Under the pieces are notes generated by a model. The model ran no database searches and was not told the origin of the DNA. It worked only from the letters and a program-made list of their open reading frames with translations. The translations under genes were made by a program, and so were the position numbers. A DNA stretch of 64,000 nt from IMG/VR virus record IMGVR_UViG_3300032038_000051, positions 12,740-76,739 of that record; one strand, given 5' to 3'. The stretch is from a virus. Lineage: Duplodnaviria > Heunggongvirae > Uroviricota > Caudoviricetes. How positions within the stretch are numbered: position 1 is the first letter of the stretch; every line of letters starts with the position of its first letter. Of this stretch, positions 1,228-29,689 are shown piece by piece.

Positions 1228-1528
1228 GGAGGCCATCCGCACGCTCGCCGAGGCGAGCGAGAAGATGCAGAGGATGCTCGACCCGCACGATAGCGGTGCC
1301 GTCATGTACGTCGCCGGCGTCAGCTTCGCCGCGGAATGGCTGCGCGAGGCGACCTCCGACGACGCGGAGGAGGTTAGCCCAGACGAGCTCGCCGAGGGCG
1401 TGATGGGGACGGTGCAGGCGTGCGCGCCGCTCGTCGGCATCATCGACGCCCTCGCGGCGCTCGACGGCAAGAAGCTCGGCAAGGACGACTTGGCTAAGCT
1501 CGCCAGCACGCTCAAGGACATGGCATGA
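1217..1528 (+). CDS. hypothetical protein, tandem paralog of 898..1227
   Basis: GTG start giving VKAKEAIRTL..., similar N-terminus and acidic C-terminus to the upstream gene. Confidence 0.5.
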   Translation: MKAKEAIRTLAEASEKMQRMLDPHDSGAVMYVAGVSFAAEWLREATSDDAEEVSPDELAEGVMGTVQACAPLVGIIDALAALDGKKLGKDDLAKLASTLKDMA

Positions 1529-2451
1529 GCCTGAAGAACGAGGGCGTGAACTTCACGACCGTGAGGTTCAAGGGCACCGAGCAGGAGGTCAACGACCAGT
1601 GGCTCCGGTTCCGTGGCGAGGGCATAGGCGGCTCCGAGGTCGCCGGCATCCTCGGCATGTCGGCATGGGCCACGCCGATAACGATATGGCTCGAGAAGAC
1701 CGGGCGCGCCGAGCACCAGGACATCTCCGGCAACGAGCGCGTCGAGTGGGGCGTGCGGCTCGAGCCGACCATCAGGGCGAAGTTCCGCGAGAGCCACCCG
1801 ACTTTCAAGGTTATCGAGCCGAGGGCCACGCTGGTGTCGATCGCCCGCCCGTGGGCGCATGCGTCGCTCGACGGCATGGTGTACGACCCCGACATGGGCT
1901 GGGGCGTGCTCGAGGTCAAGACCGCTGGCAGCCGCGACGGATGGTTCGACGGCGACGAGGAGACGGTCCCGACCTACTACCTGACGCAGGCGGTCCACTA
2001 CATGAGCGTCACCGGGTTCAGGTACGTGCGCTTCGCGGTGCTGATATCCGGCTCCACGTACATCGAGCGCACGGTCCTCTGGGACGACGAGGACGTGGCG
2101 CTGGTGGTCGACGCGGTCGACTCCTTCTGGAACGACAACGTGCTGAGGGACGTGATGCCGGACATGGTGACCGCGAGCCCCGGCGACTCCAAGGCGATGC
2201 ACAGGCTGTACGTCCACTCGGACGAGGACATGGACGAGGAGCACGAGGCCGAGGCCGAGGAGCTCATGTCGGAGTACCTGGCCGCATCCGAGGCCGAGAA
2301 GGCGGCGAAGGAGCGCAAGGCGGTCGCGTCGACGTCGCTGAAGCGGCTCATCGGGGGGCACAGGGGCATCGTCGGCTGCGACCACGTCGCGACGTGGTCC
2401 AGGAGCGAGAAGCGCGACGGAGGCGTGAGGGTGAAGCGCAAGGTCGCGTAG
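1525..2451 (+). CDS. YqaJ-like phage exonuclease (lambda-Exo / PD-(D/E)XK family)
   Basis: GIGGSEVAGILG motif characteristic of the YqaJ viral recombinase domain; directly upstream of RecT. Confidence 0.8.
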   Translation: MSLKNEGVNFTTVRFKGTEQEVNDQWLRFRGEGIGGSEVAGILGMSAWATPITIWLEKTGRAEHQDISGNERVEWGVRLEPTIRAKFRESHPTFKVIEPRATLVSIARPWAHASLDGMVYDPDMGWGVLEVKTAGSRDGWFDGDEETVPTYYLTQAVHYMSVTGFRYVRFAVLISGSTYIERTVLWDDEDVALVVDAVDSFWNDNVLRDVMPDMVTASPGDSKAMHRLYVHSDEDMDEEHEAEAEELMSEYLAASEAEKAAKERKAVASTSLKRLIGGHRGIVGCDHVATWSRSEKRDGGVRVKRKVA

Positions 2452-2590
2452 ACCAATTGGCATGGTTTGGCAGGCATGGCACGGTCCGGCGGGGCATGGC
2501 GTGGCTTGTCCAGGCACGTCGAGGCAAGTCGCGGACGCAGGTTCATCTGGCGCGGGACACTTCCGCGCCTTTCGTTTAGGAGGAAGCAAC

Positions 2591-3778
2591 ATGGGACAGC
2601 TTGCAAGAAAGACCAGGGAAACTCAGGTCCAGCGGCAGCAGGCGAGGCCGCAGGACGGCATAGCGGCGATGCTCAGGGACAGGTGGCCGCAGATACAGGC
2701 GGTGATGCCGCGCCACATGAGCAGCGAGCGGCTCTTCCAGCTCGCGGTGTCCTCGATCAACCACACGCCGCAGCTCCTCGAGGCCACGCCCGAGACGATA
2801 CTCGCTTGCGTGATGAAGTGCTCCGCGCTCGGCCTCGAGCCGTCGGCGGTCGACGGTCTCGGGAGGGCCTACATCCTCCCATACCGCAACCGCAAGGCGG
2901 GCATAGTCGAGGCGCAATTCATTTTAGGTTATAAAGGCATGCTCGAGCTGTGCAGGAACTCCGGCGAGCTGAGGAGCATCGAGGCGAGGGTCGTGCACGA
3001 GGGGGACGTGTTCGAGTTCGAGTACGGCCTCAACGAGACGCTGCGGCACGTCCCGTGCGCCAACGGCGGGAAAATGACGCACGTCTACTGCGTGGCGAAG
3101 TTCAAGGACGGCGGGCATTACATCGACGTTATGACGAAGGACGAGGTGGACGCGATACGCAAGCGCTCCAAGGCGTCGCAGAGCGGCCCGTGGGAGACCG
3201 ATTACGAGGCGATGGCGCGAAAGACCGTCATCCGCCGCGCGTTCCCGTACCTGCCGGTGTCCGTCGAGGCGCAGGAGGCTGCCGCGTCCGACGAGACGAC
3301 CCCCGACTACGGCGGCGTGCTCAACCCGGTCATCGAGGTCGCCGACGCCGTCGTGACAGACGCCGCGCCCGAGCAGCCCGCCGGTCCGACCGACGAGGAG
3401 AAGGCCGAGCTCCGCAAGCTCACCATCGGATGCGTCGCGGTGGGCGTCGCGGAGCAGGACGCCAAGAGGCAGCTCTTCGCCCTATGGCGCGAGGGTGGCA
3501 TGGACGCCGCGCGCTCCTACGTGCAGGGCCTCGCAGACGATGCTGCCGTCGATTCGCTCGTCGAGAGGTGCGTGGCGTCAGGCTACGACCGCGACGACAC
3601 CAAGACGTGGCTCCTCGGCATCCGCTCCGCGCAGGGCATGGACGCCGCGAGGTCCGAGGCCGAGCGCATCATCGCCGAGGCAGCGGCCAACGCCGAGGCC
3701 AGCGGCGTCGACGCGGAGACGGGTGAGGTCGTGGACGCGGTCGTCGGCGACCTCGCGAGCGAAGACATCGCTTTTTAG
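2591..3778 (+). CDS. recT: RecT-family single-strand annealing recombinase
   Basis: GYKGMLELCRNSGE and VMTKDEVDAIRKRS signatures of RecT; GGAGG RBS before ATG 2591; paired with the exonuclease. Confidence 0.85.
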   Translation: MGQLARKTRETQVQRQQARPQDGIAAMLRDRWPQIQAVMPRHMSSERLFQLAVSSINHTPQLLEATPETILACVMKCSALGLEPSAVDGLGRAYILPYRNRKAGIVEAQFILGYKGMLELCRNSGELRSIEARVVHEGDVFEFEYGLNETLRHVPCANGGKMTHVYCVAKFKDGGHYIDVMTKDEVDAIRKRSKASQSGPWETDYEAMARKTVIRRAFPYLPVSVEAQEAAASDETTPDYGGVLNPVIEVADAVVTDAAPEQPAGPTDEEKAELRKLTIGCVAVGVAEQDAKRQLFALWREGGMDAARSYVQGLADDAAVDSLVERCVASGYDRDDTKTWLLGIRSAQGMDAARSEAERIIAEAAANAEASGVDAETGEVVDAVVGDLASEDIAF

Positions 3779-15893: not shown

Positions 15894-16055
15894 AGGACCT
15901 GTTGGTCGCGATATTCGGGATCGTTCTCGTCTTCGCCTTCGTCCTGCTCGTCGTCATGTCGCTCCTGAACTTCGGCACGGTGGCCGGGTGCCACTGCGCG
16001 CTGCTGGCGCTGGTCATGCTGGGCATATGCTCCATACGTCTATAGGGAGCCGGCC

Positions 16056-16253: not shown

Positions 16254-16257
16254 GTCC

Positions 16258-16832: not shown

Positions 16833-16843
16833 GCGTGTGGACG

Positions 16844-17002
16844 ATGGTACTGTTTGTGATCCTGGAAATGGCGACGTGCGCCATTGACATGTACTGCCTG
16901 GCGAACTACCTCGCGGAAGACGTCGGCTGGATGTCCTTTCTGTGGCTCGTCGCCGCATGCATGCTGACCGCATTGATGCTAGTTATGCGCAACTGCTGGT
17001 AA
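16844..17002 (+). CDS. small hydrophobic peptide
   Basis: Two predicted TM segments. Confidence 0.3.
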   Translation: MVLFVILEMATCAIDMYCLANYLAEDVGWMSFLWLVAACMLTALMLVMRNCW

Positions 17003-17018
17003 AGAAGGGTGATGTGAT

Positions 17019-17384
17019 ATGAGCAAGACAGAGTTCCAAGTACTCGATACGATTCACCCCAAGAACATCTACCCACTCATCAACATCACGCCCGTGCTAT
17101 GGCATCGCGGCGACTTCTGCGGCATCGATCGCATAGAAGTCCGCTGGCCCGACGAGCTGCGACTGTTCTACGACGAGCAGTCCTTCGAGCAGATGAAGGC
17201 CAGGCTCGAGGAGCACGGGGGCGCGTCCTCGTACGAGGATGGCTACTCGGACGGCTTCGACAAGGGGGAGGAGGCCGTCGTCCAGCAGATTGACGCCATC
17301 ATCGACGAGCACTGGTCGAGCGACGAGGCGGTGAAGAGCATACGCCGTTGGATCGCCGACTTCTGGAAGGAGCGCGAATCATGA
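17019..17384 (+). CDS. hypothetical protein
   Basis: ORF with RBS. Confidence 0.55.
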   Translation: MSKTEFQVLDTIHPKNIYPLINITPVLWHRGDFCGIDRIEVRWPDELRLFYDEQSFEQMKARLEEHGGASSYEDGYSDGFDKGEEAVVQQIDAIIDEHWSSDEAVKSIRRWIADFWKERES

Positions 17385-17815
17385 GCGAAGAGACGAACGG
17401 GAGCGGGAGGTATTGCGCCGAATCCCAGAGGGTCGGGAATGCCCTGCTTGAGTACCGCGACAACCCGCCATGCAACGAAGTGGGTGGAACGCTTTGCGGA
17501 CAATGGTACGTGCCCGGTGACGTCATGGCGATAATCATGGAGCCGAAGACCGTCTTCACGACGGCGGACTACCTCACGCGCCTCGCCCACCTGATGGGGG
17601 TGGACGACGGAGCGGGCACGGAACTCAAGCCCTGCCCGTTCTGCGGAAGCGATGCCGAGATGGACACCTTGATGATAGAGCCTTGCTGGTGGACTGCGGA
17701 AGTCCGTTGCAAGGGAATACGCGAAAACAAGTGCTCGGCGCTCATGGTATGCGGAGGAGACACCGAGAAGGAGGCGGTCGAGGCCGTCACGAAGGCTTGG
17801 AACAGACGGGCTTAG
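17381..17815 (+). CDS. Lar-family restriction-alleviation-like protein (C-terminal Lar domain)
   Basis: C-terminal LKPCPFCGSD...C..C...EAVEAVTKAWNRRA matches the Lar family zinc-ribbon/WNRR signature. Confidence 0.55.
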   Translation: MSEETNGSGRYCAESQRVGNALLEYRDNPPCNEVGGTLCGQWYVPGDVMAIIMEPKTVFTTADYLTRLAHLMGVDDGAGTELKPCPFCGSDAEMDTLMIEPCWWTAEVRCKGIRENKCSALMVCGGDTEKEAVEAVTKAWNRRA

Positions 17816-17830
17816 AAAGGTGTGTGAGCG

Positions 17831-18094
17831 ATGACGAACGGCAAGTACTACGTCGAACCCCAATACTGGGGGCATTGGCCCAAGACGCTGGTCGTGCACC
17901 ACAAGGCGTCCGGCGGAGTCGACGAGACGCGCAAGTACGCCCATGTCGGCTCGTGCGAGGTGACGCGCAACCATCCCGACACAAGCTGCTTCATGTGGCA
18001 ATGCTCCGAGTGCGGCGAGCACTTCAGCACGTGCCAGCAGCCCAAGCACTGTCCGTCGTGTGGGCGGGCGGTGTCGCGCGTGGAGGAACGTTGA
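17831..18094 (+). CDS. zinc-ribbon protein
   Basis: CSECGEHF...HCPSCGRAV. Confidence 0.5.
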   Translation: MTNGKYYVEPQYWGHWPKTLVVHHKASGGVDETRKYAHVGSCEVTRNHPDTSCFMWQCSECGEHFSTCQQPKHCPSCGRAVSRVEER

Positions 18095-18135
18095 GGCGAC
18101 CGCAGGCTCGGACGGACGCTGACGGAGGGAGAGGA

Positions 18136-18828
18136 ATGAGCAAGGACGACTACCCGGAGCCGACGACGGTCCGGGATTTGTGGCTTATGGGCGAGACGTG
18201 CGGGAAGTACCGCAACTGCGTCGAGTACGAGCGCGCCGATGGGGTGCCCGACAACGGCATCGACTACCGCGAGGGCATGGTGGTGTGCCACACGATGAGG
18301 GTCCTGCCCGACGCGTACGCCGACACCGTCGAGGTCGTCGTGCAGAGGGTCGAGGTCGACCACACGTACCCCGACGGCTCCTACTGCCCGCGCGAGGTGA
18401 CGCTGTGGAGGAGGACGTACGGCGGCATCAAGGGGTTCCGCGAGTCGCCGTTCTGGGGCCTGACGTTGGCGTCGTGGGGCACCGCGCGGGCGTCGTGGGA
18501 CACGCGCAAGCTCGACGACCATGACGTCGGCTTCGACGGCGACCGTGGCGGCCTATGGCTCCACTACCTCAAGCACCGCACGGACTGGCTCGGGAACGAC
18601 AAGCTCAGCGGCGAGATAGGGTCGCTCTGCTTCTCGGCACGGCAGGACGGGAGCGTGGCTCTGGCGATCGACGGCAACGAGGTGTTCGACGGCCTCGTGC
18701 AGGACCTGGCGACGGCGCTCGAGGAGTACTTGGAGATGAAGGAGAAGCTGGAAACGCTAAAGGAGCACGGGGTCGACCTCGACGAGGGGACCCTGTCCAT
18801 AAGGCTGTGGGGCGACGGCGATGAGTAG
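18136..18828 (+). CDS. hypothetical protein (230 aa)
   Basis: ORF with GAGGGAGAGG RBS. Confidence 0.55.
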   Translation: MSKDDYPEPTTVRDLWLMGETCGKYRNCVEYERADGVPDNGIDYREGMVVCHTMRVLPDAYADTVEVVVQRVEVDHTYPDGSYCPREVTLWRRTYGGIKGFRESPFWGLTLASWGTARASWDTRKLDDHDVGFDGDRGGLWLHYLKHRTDWLGNDKLSGEIGSLCFSARQDGSVALAIDGNEVFDGLVQDLATALEEYLEMKEKLETLKEHGVDLDEGTLSIRLWGDGDE

Positions 18829-19048
18829 CGGCGCGAGCGTGTCCAGGATGGTGCGCGAGTACCTCGCGAGGAACGGCTACGACGGGCTGTGCAACGCCGT
18901 CGCCGAGTGCGGGTGCACCCTGGACGACCTCTTCCCGTGCTCGGGGCCCAACGTCAAGGAGTGCCGCGCGGCCCACAAGTCCGACTGCATGACGTACGTG
19001 GGAGAGGGCCTCTGCGGCCCCGACCACGCCGAAGGAGATGGTGACTAA
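18821..19048 (+). CDS. hypothetical Cys-rich protein
   Basis: ORF. Confidence 0.45.
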   Translation: MSSGASVSRMVREYLARNGYDGLCNAVAECGCTLDDLFPCSGPNVKECRAAHKSDCMTYVGEGLCGPDHAEGDGD

Positions 19049-19220
19049 TGAATCCACCGATGATGTCGTACTCGACGATGCTGAGCCTAATGAGCATCAT
19101 GCGCGGGGGCGGGACGACGCCCGTTGACTACGCCCGTACGCACAGGAGCAAGAAGCACAAGGCGCGGCGAGGGCACCGGAACCGAAGGCACTACATAAGG
19201 TCGATGGGGAGCCGGTAGCG

Positions 19221-20677: not shown

Positions 20678-20910
20678 GCGCAGAGAAGCGCTATCGCTGC
20701 ATAAAGGAGTTCAGCGTTCCCCTTTGCGATGATGACGGTTGCGCCGTCGAGAGTGGCGAGACGATGCCCGTAGAAGTCGGTGAGACGTTCTATCGAAGCG
20801 ACGTGACTTGGATGAATGACGTGCGTCTTGAAGGCGTTGGCGATACCTATGTATGGCTGGAAGTCAGCGAGGAAACGTTCAGAGAGCACTTTGAGGAGGA
20901 AGCCGAATGA
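20674..20910 (+). CDS. hypothetical protein
   Basis: ATGA-coupled ORF. Confidence 0.45.
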   Translation: MSAEKRYRCIKEFSVPLCDDDGCAVESGETMPVEVGETFYRSDVTWMNDVRLEGVGDTYVWLEVSEETFREHFEEEAE

Positions 20911-21125
20911 CCATCTGGGAGACGCTGTTCGGCACGCCGGAACGCACGGCCAAAACGCTTGGCTACGTCGACCAAATCGACGCCTGTGACTTCATGGCAA
21001 GCGTGCGCGAAGCGAAGATCCCGCCTGAAAGGTGCGAAGGATGCCTGTTCGACTATGACCACTATGGCTGCGGGCGGACTGACATGACGCTTGTCGAGTG
21101 GCTGAATCAGGAGATGGGCGAATGA
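20907..21125 (+). CDS. hypothetical protein
   Basis: ORF. Confidence 0.5.
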   Translation: MTIWETLFGTPERTAKTLGYVDQIDACDFMASVREAKIPPERCEGCLFDYDHYGCGRTDMTLVEWLNQEMGE

Positions 21126-21394
21126 CCGAATACGTAGGGTACAAAGACCAGATCGGCGAGGGCCTGTACAACATGGGCCTGACAGAAGAGCGAATCATCA
21201 GGTGCCGCGACTGCCAGTTCGGCCACCAGCACGACTGCAAGCGGTACCCGAAGGACAAGAAGTACATGGGCAAGTGGTACTGCATCGTGTGGGGAGACGG
21301 CATGCAGGGCGAGTGGACGCGTGAGGACGGCTTCTGCCATCGCGGAAAGCCGAGGATGGGAGAGTTGGTTCGGGACGCGAAGGGAGCTTGCTAG
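21122..21394 (+). CDS. hypothetical Cys/His-rich protein
   Basis: ORF. Confidence 0.5.
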   Translation: MTEYVGYKDQIGEGLYNMGLTEERIIRCRDCQFGHQHDCKRYPKDKKYMGKWYCIVWGDGMQGEWTREDGFCHRGKPRMGELVRDAKGAC

Positions 21395-21397
21395 CCA

Positions 21398-21670
21398 ATG
21401 AGCAAGTACGTAATAGAAATAGACGACGGCGACCTCGTCGACGGGTGTGCCCACTGCCCGCTCAACTACGACTACCAATATTGCGTCGCATACCATGGCG
21501 ACTGGTCGGAGGAGCCTGTGTCCAACTCCTCGTTTGAGGGTTGTAAGGAAGGGCGTCCGAAGAATTGCCCGCTGGTACCGCTAAAGACCACGACCAGGGA
21601 CGGAAAGGGCAAGACGAAGTTATGGCCGCTGGGTACCTCTTTGCGAATGCTGTGGATACGCGATAGGTGA
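21398..21670 (+). CDS. zinc-ribbon protein, possibly frameshifted (an alternate-frame tail ends at 21722)
   Basis: CAHCP...C N-terminus; a +1 frame continues as CECCGYAIGDRRYNFCPRCGAEIVGE and ends at a TAG that overlaps the next ATG. Confidence 0.4.
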   Translation: MSKYVIEIDDGDLVDGCAHCPLNYDYQYCVAYHGDWSEEPVSNSSFEGCKEGRPKNCPLVPLKTTTRDGKGKTKLWPLGTSLRMLWIRDR

Positions 21671-21722
21671 CAGGAGATACAACTTCTGCCCCAGATGTGG
21701 CGCGGAGATAGTGGGGGAATAG

Positions 21723-22022
21723 ATGGCTGACGTAATGACCGAAATACTGGCTAGGGTATACGTCCTCTTGGCGTGCCACATGCTCGGGGACTACGCTCTG
21801 CAAAACGACTACATAGCGAAGACGAAGGGAAGCAACCCGTGGCACATGGTCGCCCATTGCGTGCTGTACGCCGTGCCGTTCGCGGTCGTGTTCGGCATCG
21901 ACTGGCGCGTTGGGTGGCTGCTGCTGTCGCACATCATAATCGACGAGCTGAAGGTGCACGGCAAGATCGACTACAAGTCCGACCAGGTGCTGCGCCTGTT
22001 CTTTGCGTTGCTCTATTTTTAG
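21723..22022 (+). CDS. DUF3307-like membrane protein
   Basis: HMLGDYALQ...HMVAHCVLY His-containing TM pattern of DUF3307. Confidence 0.5.
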   Translation: MADVMTEILARVYVLLACHMLGDYALQNDYIAKTKGSNPWHMVAHCVLYAVPFAVVFGIDWRVGWLLLSHIIIDELKVHGKIDYKSDQVLRLFFALLYF

Positions 22023-22102
22023 GGCGAAAAACCTAATTATGACATTTGAAAGTAAATGACTATGAAGATTTGTGACAGTGGAGCACACATGCGAGGTGGG
22101 CA
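22023..22102 (+). promoter_or_regulatory. AT-rich intergenic patch, candidate promoter
   Basis: Sharp local GC drop with TTGAAA / TATGAA-like hexamers upstream of the gene starting at 22103. Confidence 0.3.
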
Positions 22103-22330
22103 ATGAGCCTCATAAAGAGTGGCTCCATGACCTGTGAGTACTGCCACCCGAACGAGGCCGGGAGCCTGAAGTGGCTGCGGGACGAACCCGACAACTGGGC
22201 ATGGCTTGAGGAGTCGAGCGACGAGTGGGGCATCGTGGTTGGCGGCAGCGCGCGATGCTGCGGAACCGATTGCACGTCCGAGCTGTACGTGAAGATAAAG
22301 TGCTGTCCGATGTGCGGAAGGGAGCTGTAA
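22103..22330 (+). CDS. zinc-ribbon protein
   Basis: CEYCHP...CCGTDC...CCPMCGREL. Confidence 0.5.
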   Translation: MSLIKSGSMTCEYCHPNEAGSLKWLRDEPDNWAWLEESSDEWGIVVGGSARCCGTDCTSELYVKIKCCPMCGREL

Positions 22331-22334: not shown

Positions 22335-22691
22335 ATGTGGAGAGAGCAATCCGAGTGGGAAGAAATCATCAAGACGGCCATCGAGAAGATCGAGCGTGGT
22401 GAAGAGCTCGAAGAAGAGGAGCTTAGGGCGCTCGCCTGCGAGGTCGAATACGCGGATCTGGATGAGATCGAGCATGTGACGGAAATCGAAGGCGAAGACC
22501 ATAGGTGGCAGCGGGAGGTAAGCACCGTCATAAAGGCGCATGGACGATACTGGCGCATTGACTGGATGCGCGCGCTCACAGAGACGTCAGAGGACGAATT
22601 CTGGGACCAGCCTGTGGAGGTAAGGCCAGTAACGCGAACCATACCGGCCCGTGAGGTCGTAGAGTACGAGGCCATATGCGATTCCGAGTAA
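22335..22691 (+). CDS. hypothetical acidic protein
   Basis: ORF. Confidence 0.5.
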   Translation: MWREQSEWEEIIKTAIEKIERGEELEEEELRALACEVEYADLDEIEHVTEIEGEDHRWQREVSTVIKAHGRYWRIDWMRALTETSEDEFWDQPVEVRPVTRTIPAREVVEYEAICDSE

Positions 22692-23068
22692 CCAACATCA
22701 AGCCCGGTTACTGTGAGGTGTGGGCGAACGAGCGCGACGGCGAACGGTATAAGCACTTGGCCGTCGTCCTTCGTGACGAAAGCTCGAACGGCAGGGGCAA
22801 GAGCTGGCACTGGTCTGCAAAACCCGACGAGCCGCCGTTCTACATGCCGTATCGCACCAACGAGTTCGACACACGCCGAGAGTGTGTCAACCACTGCATG
22901 AAGACGGCGCTCGAACGGCTTGTCAAGCGTGCCATCAATCAGCAGCCCGATGAAAGCCGACATTGGCACAGCCCGAGAAACGATGCTTGGTGCACGGTCA
23001 CGGCAAGCAGCCTATTCACGCAAGACGAGCTGAGAGCGATTAAAAAAGAGTTGGTTACCTTCCAGTAA
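22676..23068 (+). CDS. hypothetical protein
   Basis: ORF. Confidence 0.45.
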   Translation: MRFRVTNIKPGYCEVWANERDGERYKHLAVVLRDESSNGRGKSWHWSAKPDEPPFYMPYRTNEFDTRRECVNHCMKTALERLVKRAINQQPDESRHWHSPRNDAWCTVTASSLFTQDELRAIKKELVTFQ

Positions 23069-23085
23069 GGAATTGAGGAGAAGCA

Positions 23086-23421
23086 ATGAGCAAGGCAATG
23101 CAAGCGCTAAAGAACTTTCTCACTGTCTCCCCGAGCGTCGTGTACCCCGACGAGGTTCTGGAGCTTTTGGGGCCAGTGGAGCGTGAAAACGCAAGGCTGC
23201 GGGAGATAGTGAGGGACATGCATAGGGCGTTCTTCAGGCTTGACATTGACCATTGCCAAGCATGCCCACGGGACACCATTAACGGACCGTGCACGAAATA
23301 CCTTGTTGGAGGAAGCGACGAATGCGATTTCGAAGAGGAAATGCGCGAGCTTGGAATCGAGGCAAAAAATGACGCTGGACGAGGCCATAGAGCACGCCAA
23401 AGAGGTAGCGAGGACGTGTGA
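23086..23421 (+). CDS. MRELGI-tail coiled-coil family member 1
   Basis: VERENARLREIV motif and C-terminal MRELGIEAKND. Confidence 0.5.
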   Translation: MSKAMQALKNFLTVSPSVVYPDEVLELLGPVERENARLREIVRDMHRAFFRLDIDHCQACPRDTINGPCTKYLVGGSDECDFEEEMRELGIEAKNDAGRGHRARQRGSEDV

Positions 23422-23728
23422 CGACAAATCTTGCTCCGCCGAGCACGCGCAACTCGCGGAATGGCTGTCATTGCTCAAGGTCTATACGGACACACATATG
23501 GCGGAGGAAGTGCAACGTTCCCGCCACGAGATGCACGGGTGGCAGCTTGAGTGGAAGCGCGAGAAGGAGCGCAGGGAAGAGTTGGAGTCCGAGAACGCAA
23601 GGTTGCGTGAGCTATGTAAAAATCTGTACGACTTTGTATGGTTCGAGGCTCCGACGATCACGGAGCTTAACTTCGCGGTGAACATGGAAGAACTCGGAAT
23701 CGAGATCAAAAATGAAGATGAAGGCTGA
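23369..23728 (+). CDS. MRELGI-tail coiled-coil family member 2
   Basis: ESENARLRELCKNLYDF and C-terminal MEELGIEIKNEDEG; start sits in a CAAAAAATGA junction inside the previous gene's tail. Confidence 0.5.
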   Translation: MTLDEAIEHAKEVARTCDDKSCSAEHAQLAEWLSLLKVYTDTHMAEEVQRSRHEMHGWQLEWKREKERREELESENARLRELCKNLYDFVWFEAPTITELNFAVNMEELGIEIKNEDEG

Positions 23729-24167
23729 GGACGGCAAGCTGTACGCCGAGATTACGCTGCGTGATGTGGTCGAGAAGAACGACGTGAGCGACATGCCGAT
23801 ACTTGCGGAGGTCAAACGGCTGTACGCCGAGAACGACAAGCTGCGAGAGCAGATTCACTGGCTTGAGCGGGGCGACGTCATGCATGTGCTGACTGACCAA
23901 GAGTACATCGACCAGTGCGAGCGCGAGCGTCTGATGCAGGTGAGCATCGACGCGCTTGATACGGAGAACAACAAGCTACGGGAGCTTTTTAGCAAGGTGT
24001 ATGGCTACTACGTGAGCGGCACGCTGACGCCATGTGACTTCTGCGACAAATACTGCTGCGAGGGAGACGCGCCGACAACATGCAAGTCCGACGAGTACGA
24101 CCTAGACGGGGTCGTGGTCGAGGAGGTCGAGCGCCGCATGCGCGAGTTGGGGATTGGGGTGAGCTAG
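23712..24167 (+). CDS. MRELGI-tail coiled-coil family member 3
   Basis: NDKLREQIHWLERGD and ENNKLRELFSKVYGYY repeats; C-terminal MRELGIGVS; Cys cluster CDFCDKYCCEGD. Confidence 0.55.
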   Translation: MKMKAEDGKLYAEITLRDVVEKNDVSDMPILAEVKRLYAENDKLREQIHWLERGDVMHVLTDQEYIDQCERERLMQVSIDALDTENNKLRELFSKVYGYYVSGTLTPCDFCDKYCCEGDAPTTCKSDEYDLDGVVVEEVERRMRELGIGVS

Positions 24168-24569
24168 ATGAATGAAAACGAACGGATAGTGTGCGAGTTT
24201 CTACGCAAAATTGCGCCGCCGCGCGAGTGGGAATACCTTGGCGAAGTCGAGCACTACTGGATTAGCCAACTTTGTGACGAGCTGAACAAGCAGCTCAAGA
24301 CCGAGAACGCCAAGCTGCGGGAGGAGCTTGCCAAATGGGAGCGGCTTGCCGCTGGCATTGACCTGCCCGAGTATCCCGTGACGCAATTCATACCGAAGGA
24401 CTTGGAACGCGAAAACTCAAAGCTGCGGGAACTTGTGGCGGACATGTTGGTGTGCGTAAGCGAGGGGGACTGGGACTGCTCAGACTGCCCTCGATACGCC
24501 AGATGCGACGAGGGCGTAAGTGAGTTCATTGACCGCGCACGCGAACTGGGAGTTGGGGCGGACGTATGA
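24168..24569 (+). CDS. MRELGI-tail coiled-coil family member 4
   Basis: ENAKLREELAKWERL and ENSKLRELVADMLVCV; C-terminal ARELGVGADV; CSDCPRYARCDEG. Confidence 0.55.
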   Translation: MNENERIVCEFLRKIAPPREWEYLGEVEHYWISQLCDELNKQLKTENAKLREELAKWERLAAGIDLPEYPVTQFIPKDLERENSKLRELVADMLVCVSEGDWDCSDCPRYARCDEGVSEFIDRARELGVGADV

Positions 24570-25159
24570 GCGAGCTGTACGAACTAAGGCCCGCGTGCGA
24601 GGGCATGAGCAGGTCGGAGATTACCGACCTGTTGGACAGGGAGCTCGTCCGTCTCAGGCTTACCAAGAAGAACGCTTATGGCTACTGGGCGCACGAGGTA
24701 TGGCTTGACCGGTACAAGGAGAAGGGCGAGGCCAAGAGGGTGGACTTCGTGGATTTCGTGCCGAAGGGCGGGCCGATGTACAGCGACGGCCCGCACGTCG
24801 AGCATGGGACGTTCACTTTCTACGAGGTCAAGTCATGCATGGCAGACCTCAAGAGCGGCCACGGGCTTACCTTCGAGGGTGACGAGAACTTCCTCGTCAT
24901 GCCAGTGGAGTTGTACGAGCCATACCTAAAGGAGAGCATGAAGGACGAGCACCTTCGCCAGAGTACGCGATACGCGCGATGCCTTCTTTACGGCACCGGG
25001 AGGAGCGGCAAACCGACGTTCTGGGAGCAGCCTAAGAAGCTTGAAAACGACTGGTACTGCCGCAAGAGAAGCGCGTCAGAGCTGCTCTTCTGCCTGATGC
25101 GCGCGATGATAGCCAACAGCGACCACTCAAGCGTTGAGCACCCAGTGAAAAGGATGTAG
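24566..25159 (+). CDS. putative PD-(D/E)XK nuclease (MmcB-like)
   Basis: RVDFVDFVP (Asp) ... FTFYEVKSC (E-x-K) arrangement. Confidence 0.4.
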   Translation: MSELYELRPACEGMSRSEITDLLDRELVRLRLTKKNAYGYWAHEVWLDRYKEKGEAKRVDFVDFVPKGGPMYSDGPHVEHGTFTFYEVKSCMADLKSGHGLTFEGDENFLVMPVELYEPYLKESMKDEHLRQSTRYARCLLYGTGRSGKPTFWEQPKKLENDWYCRKRSASELLFCLMRAMIANSDHSSVEHPVKRM

Positions 25160-25331
25160 GCATGTGCAGCAAAGACCCAGATCGAAGGTGCGACGGCAGA
25201 TTCAGTAGGTCGTCGGACCTGTCTTCGGGGGTGGTCCCGCTTTACTACTGTCCGTCGGTGAACCGCTCCATCTATATGGAGAGGGGCGCGATGTTCTGTC
25301 CCCTTTGCGGTGGAAGAATCGAGGCGTCAGA

Positions 25332-25754
25332 ATGAGGCCGTCAATAACCGGGGAACTGCGCGAATGCGCGTCACGCCTTGAGCGCGGCGGCATGGATCGC
25401 GGTGTCATAGACGCGCTGCGAAGCATCGCGGACAACATCGACCTCGAGCACTCGAGGCGCATGGACCAACAGGCATGCGACATACGCGAGGCGACATGCA
25501 AGTATTTCGGAGGCGTGGTCAATGACTACCGCCACGGAATCAAGAGGACTGGCGCGCGAAAGGGGAACGCGGAGCTTCGGAAGAGCCTGAGTGGCATGGT
25601 CGTTGGCACATATGCCGAGCTGTGCACGGAGAGGGACAGGACGCAATGCAGGAAGTGCTCCATGCGCGGTGAGTCCGACGACGATTGCGAGCCTGCAAGA
25701 GCCATGAGACTGCTTGGCATCGACATGTATGGGGAAGAGGTTCGGTATGACTGA
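25332..25754 (+). CDS. hypothetical protein (paralog of 27698..28003)
   Basis: C-terminal TQCRKCSMRGESDDDCEPARAMRLLGIDMYGEEVRYD parallels ETCTRCSMNNADHNGCLVTVAMRSLGIDEHGKDVTYE. Confidence 0.5.
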   Translation: MRPSITGELRECASRLERGGMDRGVIDALRSIADNIDLEHSRRMDQQACDIREATCKYFGGVVNDYRHGIKRTGARKGNAELRKSLSGMVVGTYAELCTERDRTQCRKCSMRGESDDDCEPARAMRLLGIDMYGEEVRYD

Positions 25755-26139
25755 CAGTCAAGATACGACCACGATAACCGTGCGCACGTTTCTCATCGGA
25801 ACGGACAAGGAAGCGGCACTCAAATCGCTGGAGGAGGCTTCTGAGGTCTACGGATCATGGCAGGATTGGGAAGCATGCGCCCCATACGCCCCGCCAGACC
25901 CGTGTCGCGAGGCCGGCTATCCGCAGCAATATGAGTGTGACCGCAAGGGGGAGTGCGACACGCTCTGCATTCGGACTCCGGTGAATTGCGGCTCCAGAAT
26001 CCTCGCCGACGAGATAGCAGATTGCATACAGGCGTGCTGCAACCTCGCGGCGCGCTACCACATCGACCTGCAAGCGGCCATGGACCGCTGCTACGAGCGC
26101 AACCGCGCAAGAGGGAGGATTCAAGATGGCGAGGAATAA
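25747..26139 (+). CDS. protein with MazG-like C-terminal helical segment
   Basis: IADCIQACCNLAARYHIDLQAAMDRCYERNRARG resembles the MazG/NTP-pyrophosphohydrolase helical pair; weak. Confidence 0.35.
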   Translation: MTDSQDTTTITVRTFLIGTDKEAALKSLEEASEVYGSWQDWEACAPYAPPDPCREAGYPQQYECDRKGECDTLCIRTPVNCGSRILADEIADCIQACCNLAARYHIDLQAAMDRCYERNRARGRIQDGEE

Positions 26140-26353
26140 GACTTACACGTGCGACCGCTGCGGCGCGCAGTTCGACGAAACGGACGGGTTCTCGCTTAGG
26201 CTCTACCACAAGTCACATGCACGTCGCGAATGGCACAAGTACGAAGCCGCGACTCTCGACTTCGACCTGTGCGAAAGCTGCGCGGGTGCCATAGCGGACG
26301 GAGTGAGGGACGTGGCTATGCACCGTGCGGCGGAGAAAGAGGTGACGGCATGA
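26126..26353 (+). CDS. zinc-ribbon protein
   Basis: CDRCGAQF...CESCAGAI. Confidence 0.45.
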   Translation: MARNKTYTCDRCGAQFDETDGFSLRLYHKSHARREWHKYEAATLDFDLCESCAGAIADGVRDVAMHRAAEKEVTA

Positions 26354-26604
26354 TAACGGAATGGAACATGATGCGCGACTCGGAGCCGCAACCCGGCGAG
26401 GGGAGGTTCCTGGTCATGGGCGTGAAGGGCGGCCTCTACATCGCCAAGGAGTACATGGACGACAGCGCCATCTGCGCCATCTTCGGTCGCTGCTTCCGCA
26501 CCTACAACGGGAACTACGTCGAGGCGGACAAGGTCGTGGCGTGGGCGGAGGTGCCGACGCTGGACGAGCTCATGTCCACGCGAGAACGGGGAGGTAAACG
26601 ATGA
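26350..26604 (+). CDS. hypothetical protein
   Basis: ATGA-coupled ORF. Confidence 0.45.
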   Translation: MITEWNMMRDSEPQPGEGRFLVMGVKGGLYIAKEYMDDSAICAIFGRCFRTYNGNYVEADKVVAWAEVPTLDELMSTRERGGKR

Positions 26605-26837
26605 ACAGAAACGCGAACACGTTGGCGTCCGTCGCCGACGACATATTCCACATGAACGGCGGGATCATGTCGCAGGAAGACTACTACCGCCTGTACGGCC
26701 TGGCCTCCGACATAGACACGGTCGAGGACGAGCGCCTGAGACTGCTCGAGCTGGCCGGCGAGATGTACGAGGACCAGGTGCCGGACGAGGAGCGGTGGAG
26801 GTACCGCGACCGGCTGCGCGAGCTGGGGGCGATCTGA
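26601..26837 (+). CDS. hypothetical protein
   Basis: ORF. Confidence 0.5.
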   Translation: MNRNANTLASVADDIFHMNGGIMSQEDYYRLYGLASDIDTVEDERLRLLELAGEMYEDQVPDEERWRYRDRLRELGAI

Positions 26838-27448
26838 TGGGCGCGAATGCCGAAAACCCACCGTCACACCCGCTCGTGTCGTACGCTGAGTACCTCGACT
26901 GGAACCGGGCGGAATGCGACGACGTCGCCCGCAGGCTGAAGGAAATCGCCGCCGAGATAGACGCGAGGGTCATCGAGACCAATGGACGGTACAGGGACCT
27001 GCTCGCCAAGGCGCTCGGATGCATAGACGTGATCGCAAAGCATGGGCAGACCCTGTCGTGCGGAGCGTGCCACGAGTGGTACGGCAAGTGCCCGCTTAGG
27101 GACGGGGCGTCCGAACTCGGTGTGACGGACGCGAAGCAACCACCGGTCGATGACGACCGAGGGCTGGCGGAGGAGTGCGCCGAGCTAAGGCACATGCTCC
27201 GCGAGGCGCATGACGCCTACGACAGGCTGCTGCACACAAACCGCATGACGGTCGACGAGGACGCCAGGATCAGGAACGAGCTCTCCGGCTTGAGGGTCGA
27301 GAGGGACAGGCTGGTCGAGCTCGCCTTGGACATGCGCGACGCCCTCGGCGGGGTCGACGAGCCACCGGACTTCGACCGACCGTGGCTGGGCGGCTTCGAC
27401 GAGCGCATGCGCGATCTGGGGATACTGGAGAAGGGAGACGGTCGATGA
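26837..27448 (+). CDS. MRELGI-tail family member 5 (distant)
   Basis: ECAELRHMLREAHDAYDRL and C-terminal FDERMRDLGILEKGDGR; CGACHEWYGKCP cluster. Confidence 0.5.
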   Translation: MGANAENPPSHPLVSYAEYLDWNRAECDDVARRLKEIAAEIDARVIETNGRYRDLLAKALGCIDVIAKHGQTLSCGACHEWYGKCPLRDGASELGVTDAKQPPVDDDRGLAEECAELRHMLREAHDAYDRLLHTNRMTVDEDARIRNELSGLRVERDRLVELALDMRDALGGVDEPPDFDRPWLGGFDERMRDLGILEKGDGR

Positions 27449-27684
27449 TTCATTCGATCGCAATGAAGGTGGTGGTCGTGTGCGCCGCCGTGTACGTCGC
27501 GTCGTTCACGACGATAAAGCTCATAGGCAGCGGCATCGACGCCGGGGAGCTCATGAGCATGCTGCTGGACCACAGGCGCTGCTATGAGCACCCGTGGTTC
27601 ATGATCGCATCGGTGGTCTCATGCTGCTCTCCAAGGTCGTGGGCGTCGTGTCGCTGCTTGTCATGGCCGTGGCGTGGGCGATAG
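27445..27684 (+). CDS. hypothetical membrane protein (frame uncertain)
   Basis: N-terminal TM helix; an alternate frame gives a cleaner TM tail (MLLSKVVGVVSLLVMAVAWAIGA). Confidence 0.3.
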   Translation: MIHSIAMKVVVVCAAVYVASFTTIKLIGSGIDAGELMSMLLDHRRCYEHPWFMIASVVSCCSPRSWASCRCLSWPWRGR

Positions 27685-27697
27685 GGGCGTGACGGGC

Positions 27698-28003
27698 ATG
27701 GACGTGCAGGACCGGCTCTGGACGACCTCCTGGACACTCCATATGCGCGCCTCCGCCGACCTTGACGACGAGCTGGCCGAGTGCGCCAACGCGGTCGATG
27801 TCGCCGCTGGCGAGATGGACATGATCGCAGGCTTCCTCAGGAGACTCACCGTCGGTGTCTTCGCGGAGGTATGCGCCGATGCCGACCACGAGACATGCAC
27901 CAGGTGCTCGATGAACAACGCCGACCACAACGGCTGCCTCGTGACCGTCGCCATGAGATCCCTCGGGATCGACGAGCACGGAAAGGACGTGACGTACGAA
28001 TGA
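27698..28003 (+). CDS. hypothetical protein (paralog of 25332..25754)
   Basis: Shared C-terminal C.RCSM...AMR.LGID..G..V.Y tail. Confidence 0.5.
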   Translation: MDVQDRLWTTSWTLHMRASADLDDELAECANAVDVAAGEMDMIAGFLRRLTVGVFAEVCADADHETCTRCSMNNADHNGCLVTVAMRSLGIDEHGKDVTYE

Positions 28004-28335
28004 GGACTTCGCAGGAGGATGGGCTGCTGCACAAGTACAGGCCGCTCCCCGAGGACGGTCCGCGCCACAAGAAGAGGACGAGGAAGGCCCACGTGAGGAG
28101 CGACCACAAGCACGCGTACGAGACGGTGTGCGTCGACTCGGGCGACTGGGTGTACGCGTGCGGCGAGCGGTACCACGTCTACCACACGGCGACGAGGTGC
28201 TCCGTGTGCGGAAGGATAGGGGACGTTACGATGCGCGACCTGCGCGAGGTTCCCGAGGACATGCCGCTTTACGAGGTCGACGGCATCAACGACCTGCTCG
28301 CAAAGACCCTGCCCGACGAGAGGAGGGCGTCATGA
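28000..28335 (+). CDS. zinc-ribbon protein
   Basis: CVDSGDWVYACGERYH...RCSVCGRIG. Confidence 0.5.
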   Translation: MRTSQEDGLLHKYRPLPEDGPRHKKRTRKAHVRSDHKHAYETVCVDSGDWVYACGERYHVYHTATRCSVCGRIGDVTMRDLREVPEDMPLYEVDGINDLLAKTLPDERRAS

Positions 28336-28994
28336 GCACGGGCTATGCCAGCCAGCTAACCAAGAAGTCGTTCCTTGCGGGCGCCCTGATATCGGTCGGG
28401 GCGCTCTTCTCGTTGGCGGCGAGGGAGTACGGGCCGGTGGTGCAGGGACTCTGCTTCGGCGTCGGCCTCACCGGAGTCATGTGGACCCAGTCGAGCCTGT
28501 TCACCGGCAGGGTGCTTGACTCGGGTGCGGTCATGCGCGCGGAGCCCGGCCACGAGCGGGCGACGGCGCTCGACAGGCTCGTCGGCGAGCTTACCGTCGC
28601 GTGGGCGCTCAACCTGCTTGGCGCCGTGGTCGTCGCCCTTCATGCGAGAGCGATGCACTTCGACGCGTCCGCCGTCGCGACGGCCAAGGCGGCGATGCCG
28701 TGGCGCGAGCTGGTCATACGCGCCATCTTCTGCAACGTCATGGTATGTCTGGCCGTGTTCGCGAACCGCCGCGCCAACGGATCGCCATTGGCGGCGCCCG
28801 TCATATGCGCGCTGCCGGTCGCCTGCTTCGTCGCGTGCGGGTTCGAGCACTGCGTGGCCGACATGCTGTACATGCCGCTCGGCTTTATGCAGGGGGCCGT
28901 CACCCCAATGGACTGCGTCCGCGTCATCGGACTCGCGACAGTCGGCAACGTCATGGGCGGAGTCGCGTTCGCATGGCTCGCGGAGGCGCGCTGA
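28332..28994 (+). CDS. formate/nitrite transporter (FNT) family channel protein, short form (~220 aa)
   Basis: SSLFTGR (FNT signature-1-like LFTG), IFCNVMVCLAV (signature 2 [GA]xxCN[LIVMFYW]2VC[LV]A), ACGFEHCVADMLYMP (FEH-IANM region); six hydrophobic segments. Confidence 0.7.
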   Translation: MSTGYASQLTKKSFLAGALISVGALFSLAAREYGPVVQGLCFGVGLTGVMWTQSSLFTGRVLDSGAVMRAEPGHERATALDRLVGELTVAWALNLLGAVVVALHARAMHFDASAVATAKAAMPWRELVIRAIFCNVMVCLAVFANRRANGSPLAAPVICALPVACFVACGFEHCVADMLYMPLGFMQGAVTPMDCVRVIGLATVGNVMGGVAFAWLAEAR

Positions 28995-29215
28995 TGGCCG
29001 CGCACGACTTCGAGACGCACAGGTGCGGCGGCTCCCTCGATGCGCGCTGCTCGATACGGAGATACGGACAGGACGGCTCCAAGCTGTTCCAGAGGTTCCG
29101 CAGGGACGGGGAGTGGCACCTGTACCGACAATACGTCGACTTTGACTACGACTACACGGGCTTGGACGAGGTTGCGAGGATATCCCACTGCCCGTGGTGC
29201 GGGAAGGAGCTTTGA
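28994..29215 (+). CDS. zinc-ribbon protein
   Basis: C-terminal HCPWCGKEL. Confidence 0.45.
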   Translation: MAAHDFETHRCGGSLDARCSIRRYGQDGSKLFQRFRRDGEWHLYRQYVDFDYDYTGLDEVARISHCPWCGKEL

Positions 29216-29216
29216 C

Positions 29217-29474
29217 ATGGCGTGCGAGTACTGCGACCAAGAGCACTTGGAGCCCATCGCCGTCTGCGCCAGCGAGGGCTGGTCGATGACCCTCGTCAAC
29301 GACGAGGGGCGCGGGTGCTGGGAACTTGTCCACGAGAGGCTCACGCCTCCATACGGCTGCGTCGTCGAGAGCCGCGCGCGCGTACGCAACTGCCCGATGT
29401 GCGGCAGGGCGCTTCCGTCGTCGTGCGACGACGGCACCCCTCCCGACGGTCACGCGGGAGGTGACATGACGTGA
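29217..29474 (+). CDS. zinc-ribbon protein
   Basis: CEYCDQ...NCPMCGRALP. Confidence 0.45.
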   Translation: MACEYCDQEHLEPIAVCASEGWSMTLVNDEGRGCWELVHERLTPPYGCVVESRARVRNCPMCGRALPSSCDDGTPPDGHAGGDMT

Positions 29475-29689
29475 GCGACTTCTACCTATGCGACCTGTGC
29501 ATGGGGAACCTGAGCGACCCGGCATGGGGGCGCCAAGAGTATCAGGCGTACCGGCACGACGAGTGCGAGTGCGACTGGCACGGACGCACGAAGAAGGTGA
29601 CGGCGCACGACGACGGCGGGGGAGGGCCGCACGTGTCGTGCAGGCTGTTCGTGCCGCGGACAGAGACGCTGACGGGAACGGAGCATTGA
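29471..29689 (+). CDS. hypothetical Cys-rich protein
   Basis: GTG start; CDLCMG...CECDWHG. Confidence 0.4.
   Translation: MSDFYLCDLCMGNLSDPAWGRQEYQAYRHDECECDWHGRTKKVTAHDDGGGGPHVSCRLFVPRTETLTGTEH

Follow-up and report, generated by a model that had tools for sequence, protein, structure and literature searches.

The window analyzed here, a stretch of 64,000 nucleotides (nt) covering positions 12,740 to 76,739 of the IMG/VR virus record IMGVR_UViG_3300032038_000051 (Caudoviricetes), is part of a large uncultivated phage genome of ~63% GC. Between positions 23086 and 28003 it carries eight co-oriented + strand genes for proteins of ~80–200 amino acids (aa), each with a tail motif of the type [ML]R[EDSL]LG[IVA] placed 1–20 residues before the stop codon. 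A tail of the [RKH][ED]LG[IV] type close to the C-terminus was present in all eight genes and in no other gene of the window; the remaining matches to the tail expression lay in non-coding frames only, far from any stop. The original prediction, made from the letters alone, had described a tandem array of five coiled-coil paralogs. All five open reading frames (ORFs) were found where they had been placed on the + strand, and the array proved real, but it had been undercounted by three genes (25305/25332-25754, 26601-26837, and 27674-28003). In what follows, L-numbers denote comparison loci or contigs and P-numbers homologous proteins, all comparison sequences being metagenome assemblies. The genes, here called cassettes 1 to 8, are given with the E-values of a profile of their C-terminal module (C-module) built from outside homologues only (outside profile) and, for two of them, of a profile of the last 16 residues (tail-only profile).

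23086..23421, + strand: cassette 1 (111 aa), with an N-module, an ENARLRE zipper, a loop with four Cys, an MRELGI tail and an atypical 20-aa extension; outside profile E 2e-18, tail-only profile E 1e-5.
23369..23728, + strand: cassette 2 (119 aa), with an N-terminal phrog_33451 domain, an ENARLRE zipper, a Cys-free loop and an MEELGI tail; outside profile E 2e-9.
23712..24167, + strand: cassette 3 (151 aa), with an N-module, ENDKLRE, a middle module, ENNKLRE, a Cys-rich loop and an MRELGI tail; outside profile E 5e-18.
24168..24569, + strand: cassette 4 (133 aa), with an N-module, ENAKLRE, a linker module (WERLAAGIDLPEYPVTQF.PKDLE), ENSKLRE, a loop with four Cys and an ARELGV tail; outside profile E 1e-33.
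25332..25754, + strand: cassette 5, with a variant C-module NAELRKSL...C..C.M...C...AMRLLGIDMYGE; outside profile E 7e-4.
26601..26837, + strand: cassette 6 (78 aa), with a Cys-free C-module and the end LRELGAI; tail-only profile E 2.5e-3.
26837..27448, + strand: cassette 7 (203 aa), a distant member, ERDRLVELALDM...FDERMRDLGI, without EN.KLRE; outside profile E 5e-3.
27674..28003, + strand: cassette 8 (109 aa, start uncertain), with a variant C-module as in cassette 5 and the end AMRSLGIDEHG; outside profile E 8e-4.

The string EN.[KR]LRE was found exactly six times in the six-frame translation of the 64 kb, always within the four consecutive genes of cassettes 1 to 4 and as ENARLRE at the first two sites.

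23185..23205, 23591..23611, 23829..23849, 23964..23984, 24303..24323 and 24411..24431, + strand: EN.KLRE-coding 21-mers, belonging to direct-repeat families D1 and D2.

In the other four genes the motif was degenerate (NAELRKS, EDERLRL, ERDRLVE, and EMDMIAG). Hence, its predicted presence in each of the five genes first noted held for the four consecutive ones, and 26837-27448 has only the degenerate ERDRLVEL. The predicted M(R/E)(E/D)LGI ending was seen in 23086 and 23712 (MRELGI), in 23369 (MEELGI) and in 26837 (MRDLGI), but not in 24168, which reads ARELGV. A Cys cluster, also ascribed to all five, separates the zipper from the tail in 23086, 23712, and 24168; it is located mid-protein in 26837 and is missing from the loop of 23369, because the Cys residues of this protein sit in its N-terminal domain. 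The calculated isoelectric point (pI) was 4.4–5.2 for seven of the eight proteins and 8.7 for the 25305 product.

The start at 23369 was backed by a GAGG Shine-Dalgarno site and by a match to phrog_33451 from residue 1. This small phage domain of unknown function corresponded to residues 1–40 of cassette 2 (MTLDEAIEHAKEVARTCDDKSCSAEHAQLAEWLSLLKVYT; window 23369-23488) with an E-value of 5e-12 and, judging by this match, serves there as the N-terminal family module. The C-module of cassette 2 was similar to that of P0322, and the N-module of cassette 1 was 41% identical to L007 9127-9333. The ORF of cassette 5 opens with the TTG at 25305; however, the ATG at 25332 is most likely the start, as it forms an ATGA overlap with the stop codon of the zinc-ribbon gene before it, is preceded by GGAAGAATCGAGG, and coincides in kind with homologous N-modules, which begin MSITDELRE.

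The relationship among the window proteins was marginal by BLASTP, the best pair of the four consecutive genes giving an E-value of 3e-5, and therefore the profile of the C-module was built exclusively from outside homologues. A set of 88 sequences was used, from which those ≥60% identical to the module of 24168 had been left out, and 1048 ORFs of the window were searched with it. The top eight matches were exactly the eight tail-bearing genes (E-values of 1e-33, 2e-18, 5e-18, 2e-9, 7e-4, 8e-4, 5e-3, and 0.04), while the next match had an E-value of 2.2. When each protein was shuffled 200 times with its composition preserved, the maximum score was 7.8 bits, compared with 9.7–110.9 bits for the real proteins. 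Furthermore, the tail-only profile, which lacks the coiled coil, still picked up five of the eight genes. The divergent members were also connected by other routes: the C-module of 25305 was bridged by P0094, a protein carrying standard family modules (53% identity over 59 aa, E 1e-18), that of 26601 by P0047 (53% over 36 aa, E 6e-11), and 26837 was aligned to the family C-module by hhalign with a probability of 85% and an E-value of 6e-6. The gene 26837 is otherwise an orphan with one homologue, of 95% identity, and cassette 8 matched the 25305 gene by BLASTP with an E-value of 6e-12. By these sequence criteria, the eight genes are a true paralogous family in a phage accessory region, and the similarity that had been anticipated exceeds coiled-coil composition.

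The reading that the likeness reflects mere coiled-coil composition or chance, or that the mosaics described below are chimeric assemblies, could draw on the Pfam results, which consisted of sub-threshold generic coiled-coil matches only, and on the metagenomic origin of all relatives. It has been largely refuted, and we give it almost no credence. The eight genes were the sole matches of a profile reaching 1e-33, at scores beyond any shuffle, and the matches extended to the Cys loop and the tail, neither of which is coiled coil. A separately assembled ENA contig was 100% identical to window 24003-25101, that is, over 1099 nt; exact shared runs were at most ~39 nt, well under the k of 141 (contig name k141_721704); and all of the chimeras were intact ORFs under purifying selection.

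The C-module has the consensus LERENAKLRELVrDm, followed by a variable stretch and by fxDRMRELGIEVxx. It combines a zipper-like, Asn-containing helix pattern (..E-N-x-K-L-R-E-L-V-x-D-M..) with the tail ..D-R-M-R-E-L-G-I-E-V plus 2–4 residues. Among 252 homologues, the distance from the last EN.KLR to the tail was 17–89 residues (median 36.5), 2–4 residues followed LGI in 87%, and the number of Cys between motif and tail was bimodal (0–1 or 4–5), which suggests an optional insert in the variable loop resembling a zinc knuckle. Canonical EN.KLRE was missing in 12 of 349 homologues. The family proteins had medians of 128 aa in length and 4.74 in pI. The full-length 24168 product was modeled by AlphaFold2 as all-helical (pLDDT, the predicted local distance difference test, 80.6), and the isolated 58-residue C-module as helices 2–24 and 38–51 around the Cys loop (pLDDT 81.7, predicted template modeling score 0.64). 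The C-terminal core is thus predicted to be an antiparallel helical hairpin with the loop at its tip. Interchangeable N-terminal and middle modules precede this core, each joined through another EN.KLRE, and P0170 consists of two complete family units fused in one protein.

The heptad E-N-x-x-L-R-x-L-V with its core Asn is shared with bZIP proteins (PF00170, PF07716) and with the zippers of IS3 OrfA, the string DLERENARLRRLVADL of L004 and L006 being nearly the same. The family differs from both in lacking a basic region or a helix-turn-helix, in having only about two heptads, in its own loop and tail, and in scores below the Pfam thresholds. A role as bZIP-like DNA-binding regulators of phage or host transcription would agree with the Asn-at-position-a signature of dimeric zippers and with sub-threshold matches to Pfam bZIP_2 in 33 of 83 members (best E 3.5e-6). 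It is nevertheless highly improbable, because no basic region precedes any zipper, the flanks being acidic or neutral; besides, the proteins are acidic, the zipper is short, and the best score in the window was 15.0 bits against a gathering score of 22.3. Other assignments were rejected too. ZapB (PF06005), the name given to P0042 in one source, had no window match at E < 0.1 and was found in 6 of 83 homologues (best E 2e-4), on the zipper only. The Lar domain (PF14354) was not present in any of the eight window proteins. The resemblance to IS3-family OrfA was limited to the zipper string, with no HTH_Tnp_1 match in the window proteins.

Outside the window, 187 homologues were collected for gene 24168 and 139 for gene 23712. 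A profile search of 1.84 billion cluster representatives returned 2,870 clusters (50% identity) at E ≤ 1e-3 and, among them, 220 at E ≤ 1e-10; the weakest of the matches might be coiled coils of a generic kind. The family was found in dozens of IMG/VR contigs, and in viral and metagenomic contigs only. No match was obtained by tblastn of the family proteins against 50,697 phage records and the PLSDB plasmids, or by megablast of the 20–30 kb region against the same number of deposited GenBank phage records. A scan of 185,579 species genomes yielded no member and a single, zipper-only IS3-like match. This bacterial match (L004 9845-10123, Microvirga pudoricolor) and a viral one (L006 2081-2392) are both IS3-like OrfA-type proteins whose zipper, KDLERENARLRRLVADLSLEKQ, is close to the family string; they have no tail and are therefore not family members. 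Pfam gave only sub-threshold coiled-coil models for the family (such as bZIP_2, Sas-6_C_CC, and ZapB), and PHROGs only phrog_33451, at the N-terminus of 23369, and phrog_2776, in a neighboring gene, both of unknown function. The names carried by homologues in their sources were automatic coiled-coil labels (“ZapB,” “chromosome segregation ATPase”). Nothing but coiled coils resembling GCN4 or GpsB, at E > 0.04, came from the PDB sequence-profile search, the motif strings had no relevant match in the library of papers searched, and a keyword search of the literature retrieved no description of such a family.

The second conserved element, the tail, extends over the gene junction.

23341..23371, 23684..23714, 24138..24170, 24537..24568 and 26814..26839, + strand: tail/junction blocks of direct-repeat families D3 and D5, made up of the MRELGIE codons, which contain GGAATCGAGG (Shine-Dalgarno site), and the start ATG of the following cassette.

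The Gly codon of the tail was GGA in 61 and GGG in 15 of 79 tails (76/79), the background of GGR being 37%, and the next start lay 16–18 nt from the first base of this codon in 50 of 69 cases. With this fixed spacing, the GAGG within ATC-GAG-GTN (I-E-V) falls at the distance expected of a Shine-Dalgarno site. On this sequence evidence, the tail codons ATC-GAG-GTN double as the Shine-Dalgarno site of the next cassette, and the block of tail, Shine-Dalgarno site, and start, ~30 nt long, is a conserved inter-cassette junction. The string GGAAT[CT]GAGG was also present upstream of cassette 1 and of ATG 25332, where no family tail is encoded.

It had been predicted that at each of the first three junctions the start overlaps the preceding gene. 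The overlap was confirmed at junctions 1 and 2 (53 and 17 nt), whereas at junction 3 a TAG is directly followed by ATG. Junctions 1 and 2 have the form GGAATCGAG-NNN-AAAAATGA and are identical to each other at 17 of 20 nt. Both junction 1 (23359-23372, GGAATCGAGGCAAAAAATGA) and junction 2 (23702-23715, GGAATCGAGATCAAAAATGA) are one nt shorter than the modal ATGA stop/start overlap, and therefore the upstream ORFs continue beyond LGI for another 20 and 8 residues. Programmed -1 frameshifting at the A_AAA_AAT slippery heptamer of junction 1 was considered and discarded, since the -1 frame meets TGA at once and the one-nt-short junction is a simpler explanation.

These observations also bear on the idea that the motifs are conserved only as DNA or RNA, as ribosome-binding, recombination or regulatory sites, with the peptides as passengers that share no common fold or function. 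The strong position-specific codon bias, the purine-ended Gly codon in 96% of the tails with its fixed start spacing, and the Shine-Dalgarno strings not accompanied by an encoded tail all fit this idea. Yet the EN.KLRE sites are far from any start codon, synonymous variants were seen at every motif codon while the residues remained fixed, and the seven residues D-R-M-R-E-L-G upstream of the Shine-Dalgarno part are conserved as well. As AlphaFold2 additionally gave both motifs as confident helices of one hairpin, and the modules are under purifying selection, we judge this idea improbable.

Exchange of modules was seen in gene 24168-24569, a three-piece DNA mosaic whose pieces are 84–91% identical at the nucleotide level to three different phage contigs.

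24141..24323, + strand: mosaic segment A, from the cassette 3 tail over the junction and the cassette 4 N-module up to ENAKLRE; ~90% nt identity to L008/L009 and 91% to L002 (31% GC).
24304..24428, + strand: mosaic segment B, from ENAKLRE to ENSKLRE, the linker module; 84% nt identity, L010/L011 only.
24411..24551, + strand: mosaic segment C, from ENSKLRE to the tail, the C-module; 90% nt identity, L007 only.

The identity switches exactly on the ENAKLRE codons (24303-24323), on the ENSKLRE codons (24411-24431), and on the tail codons, segment A starting inside the tail/Shine-Dalgarno/start block. A more recent case was found in L009 and L008, which are 98% identical over 935 nt from the DENAKLRE codons on and unrelated upstream. 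In general, the same module recurred with different neighbors, and homologues were highly identical over part of their length only. The 139 homologues of gene 23712 covered it only partially, with the ends of the high-scoring segment pairs (HSPs) clustered at aa 30–40 and 92–104, beside its two motifs. Motif-coding blocks of 26–39 nt were 90–100% identical between L009 and >15 otherwise unrelated loci, and exact runs were shared with L019 (23 nt at 24303) and with L054 (24 nt in the 23341-23371 tail/junction block). In these sequence comparisons the EN.KLRE and tail codons behave as in-frame crossover points, and the crossovers always keep the reading frame.

The original prediction had attributed the array to repeated unequal recombination in place, with a family diversifying rapidly. 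That the array was built locally by repeated unequal crossing-over, the copies then diverging fast under host selection, would explain tandem co-oriented genes sharing short direct repeats, the near-identity of junctions 1 and 2, and a copy number that varies widely among related contigs; crossovers between neighboring motifs would also resize the array. Nevertheless, no pair in the window resembles a recent duplicate: the copies are 27–50% identical over short stretches only, and outside relatives of the window modules are far closer (84–91% nt, or 89% aa). The dN/dS ratio (non-synonymous to synonymous substitution) that had been proposed for the five copies was obtained from orthologous modules instead, because the window paralogues are too diverged to align outside the motifs. 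The values of 0.11–0.36, not >1, gave no sign of accelerated change. Therefore, the proteins are under purifying selection, and their diversity comes from module replacement and not from point mutation; what stood of the prediction was a diversifying family shaped by recombination, without the rapid mutational part. Low identity inside the window together with the close matches elsewhere likewise indicates that diversification proceeded mainly by module exchange between genomes, and the present data point to window copies interleaving with copies of other phages. We therefore regard construction in place as unlikely. Two other sources of variation were put aside. For a diversity-generating retroelement, no long near-identical repeat pair was seen in 22500-28500, relatives differed by whole modules, and a reverse transcriptase was not searched window-wide. 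For integron cassettes, the junctions had no inverted repeats, with direct repeats encoding the tail and the Shine-Dalgarno site instead; an integrase was not looked for.

The expected variation of copy number among related phages was confirmed, ranging from 1 to about 16 per 20 kb, and the copies were always co-oriented: 1 in L010, ~7–10 in L005 and L007, and ~13–16 in L008. An 86-kb viral contig of 31% GC (L002, also L040; IMGVR_UViG_3300032038_006501) carries three or four family genes in an island of 43–48% GC at 9677-10955, and one of their N-modules is 91% identical at the nucleotide level to the 63% GC window. As far as sequence can tell, such near-identity between contigs at 31% and at 63% GC indicates that modules are exchanged across phages of very different hosts. 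In L010, where P0029 is the sole family gene, an AbiEii-domain protein and a Cas9 of 1408 aa are encoded as well (4398-5279, 14945-19171); this contig may come from a bacterium or a prophage and not from a lytic phage.

The window provides candidates for the machinery of such exchanges.

1525..2451, + strand: YqaJ-like exonuclease; Pfam YqaJ E 7e-28.
2462..3778, + strand: RecT annealing protein; Pfam RecT E 8e-49.

Recombinases of the RecT/Red-beta type show a higher activity than RecA where the homology is short and diverged; their minimal pairing segment is 23–27 bp, and intragenic exchanges of ~100 bp are common (PMC3945230). The blocks of ~21–39 nt for EN.KLRE and for the tail/start junction, conserved down to codon choice in otherwise unrelated phages, act as crossover points, at which recombination exchanges whole modules or cassettes, both inside one phage genome and from one to another, and regenerates an intact ORF each time. 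In the mechanism that we propose, these short-homology exchanges would be catalyzed by the phage-encoded YqaJ/RecT pair, and unequal crossovers between motifs of neighboring cassettes could expand or contract the array and create chimeras.

Regarding function, the array may be a repertoire of binding specificities. Its proteins would be made early and dimerize through the zipper/hairpin core, and the swappable modules and the tip loop would bind, block or redirect proteins of the host or of rival phages, in host takeover or counter-defense. A host-interaction or anti-defense role is possible, and the specific proposal of early dimeric zipper/hairpin proteins that block or redirect such targets is put forward tentatively, with more doubt than belief. 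The proposal was made because of the size, acidity and location of the proteins, their repertoire-like diversity, their occurrence in viral contigs only, and the fusion of two homologues to Lar-like zinc ribbons, at the C-terminus of P0033 (precomputed Pfam) and at the N-terminus of P0133 (recognized by eye). A more speculative extension, which we hold to be doubtful, is that of a self-shuffling library, in which dedicated crossover sites and the phage's own RecT/YqaJ would continually make chimeric binders and resize the array within one population. This would give a recombination-based counter-defense repertoire that resembles antigenic-variation cassettes and is common to phages differing widely in GC content and therefore in host.

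The same traits could be taken for those of DNA mimics or anti-restriction proteins such as T7 Ocr, T7 Gp5.9, and ArdA. The proteins are small, helical and acidic (by their median pI), the two fused homologues carry ribbons like that of Lar (restriction alleviation), 2 of 83 members weakly matched Pfam Phage_T7_Gp5_9 (PF25708; best E 0.0085), and a DNA methylase is encoded elsewhere in the window. However, the Gp5_9 matches were far below threshold and did not include any window protein, the classic mimics carry far more net charge than the -12 or so per 130 aa found here, PDB searches gave no structural match to Ocr or ArdA, and a large, diverse repertoire would not be expected of a generic mimic. 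Consequently, this identity appears quite unlikely. With all of the evidence considered, we find probable the reading as a whole, namely a co-transcribed array of eight cassettes of an uncharacterized acidic family that swaps modules at its motif sites, with a presumed role as early dimeric binders.

Several points weigh against this reading or limit the evidence for it. Four of the eight members were weak by the profile alone (E 7e-4 to 0.04), the other four being strong (1e-33 to 2e-9). Dimerization and zinc binding are deduced from sequence patterns, the structure tools having predicted monomers only. The Foldseek search with the full-length model against the PDB and BFVD gave no match below E = 1, the structure searches taken together yielded no analogue other than a generic hairpin, and the PADLOC search returned zero matches. 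The part given to RecT and YqaJ in the exchanges is circumstantial. The relatives being metagenome assemblies, the identical ENA contig was the one check available on assembly. Among the first 120 homologues, 78% of the internal ends of high-identity HSPs lay ≤6 residues from a motif, compared with 33% for random positions; this difference speaks for crossovers at the motifs but is biased, because all sequences had been retrieved with motif-containing queries. Motif codons were conserved more strongly than the residues demand: the Arg of EN.KLRE was CGG in 11 of 16 cases (background 13%), the tail Arg was CGC in 11 of 17, and the motif Leu was never CTC (background 43%); these codon counts, like those of the HSP ends, are not phylogenetically independent. 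Finally, the GC content of the family genes followed that of their flanks over 36 loci with a slope of 0.49 (r = 0.83), which agrees with gene flow across GC contents, although a slope <1 may partly reflect amino-acid constraints.

The array belongs to an extended series of small + strand genes, probably early or accessory, whose GC of 0.55–0.59 is below that of the flanks. Besides the exonuclease and RecT, the + strand genes of the window include an N6/N4 DNA methylase, a DnaN-like sliding clamp, an SPFH protein, and an RNA ligase. The clamp, at 12308-13432, has three domains, and four tRNA genes (Met, Thr, Ser, and Trp) are clustered at 40978-41310. A promoter/terminator scan of the array block detected nothing above shuffle expectation, and Rfam gave no match on the 20–30 kb region. 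Between cassettes 4 and 5, the 197-aa product of 24566-25159 matched phrog_2776 (unknown function) with an E-value of 7e-7 and was 69% identical to L015 339-902, which is also beside family genes; its D...E-x-K-like pattern (VDFVDF...YEVKS) suggests a PD-(D/E)xK nuclease fold.

Small Cys-rich, zinc-ribbon-like proteins were abundant around the array (20907-22330, 25162-25335, 25714-26353, and 29040-29689). The motif ..CPMCGR.L is found at the C-terminus of both the 22103 and the 29040 product (E 8e-4), and gene 25714 had a weak MazG-like match and homologues near arrays in five other loci. The ORF at 16219-16656 belongs to a family with the pattern ..LLDERGV.WW..TPEQAIAATLG..C..CG..FCP.CG.. 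and a C-terminal zinc ribbon, which was present in 17 fetched loci, often directly beside arrays. Its relatives were found in L010 (9561-10004), L012, L014, and L018, and its N-terminal LDERGV.W resembles the tail RELGIEV.

Among known systems, two are closest in mechanism. One is the mosaicism produced by Rad52-like recombinases (Red-beta/RecT/Erf), which exchange DNA at short, partly diverged homologies. The window encodes a RecT with an exonuclease, and the blocks of 23–39 nt match the minimum of 23–27 bp. The exchanges between phages and defective prophages reported by De Paepe et al. (2014; PMC3945230) take place at gene-scale homologies with Rad52-like recombinases, whereas dedicated intragenic motifs are here reused hundreds of times. 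The other is that of mosaic tail-fiber and antireceptor genes, which are similar in having short in-frame motifs between variable segments, which are sites of exchange between phages and yield functional chimeras. Conserved “His-box” motifs of T-even gp37/gp38 belong to this class. In a Streptococcus thermophilus phage antireceptor, as summarized in PMC5601072, collagen-like repeats surround VR2 (Duplessis and Moineau, 2001). Those genes code for virion adhesins, while the present family consists of small acidic non-structural products of the accessory/early region; its motif is a zipper heptad instead of Gly-X-Y or a His box, its cassettes are many and in tandem, and its second conserved block spans the gene junction and doubles as a ribosome-binding site.

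T7 Ocr, T7 Gp5.9, ArdA, and the host-takeover module of SPO1 have in common with the family that their products are small, acidic, helical, early or accessory, and often dimers; Ocr, Gp5.9, and ArdA are single genes, in contrast to shuffled cassette arrays, and no sequence or fold match to them was found. The “gene accordions” of eukaryotic DNA viruses, Borrelia vls, and Neisseria pilS also present tandem paralogues, variable copy number, and recombination at short conserved flanks. Unlike vls and pilS, the array is not divided into an expression site and silent cassettes, every cassette being a complete gene, and the exchange occurs mainly between genomes and in a bacteriophage. The family is set apart from this known mosaicism by its protein class, by a single zipper heptad that serves everywhere as the in-frame linker, by its tandem cassettes, and by the dual-coded tail/Shine-Dalgarno junction.

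With this work, a sizeable part of viral dark matter is described for the first time and given a working anatomy, namely ~2,900 clusters (50% identity) for which there is no Pfam family, informative PHROG or literature. It also offers an unusually clean natural case of phage evolution resembling exon shuffling, with one reused zipper motif and crossovers visible at nucleotide resolution. The C-terminal peptide motif is at the same time the ribosome-binding site of the next gene, so that the cassettes are portable expression units. Should their products turn out to be binders used in counter-defense or host takeover, many new inhibitors could be drawn from the family, and protein engineers would have in it a natural scaffold-plus-linker system.

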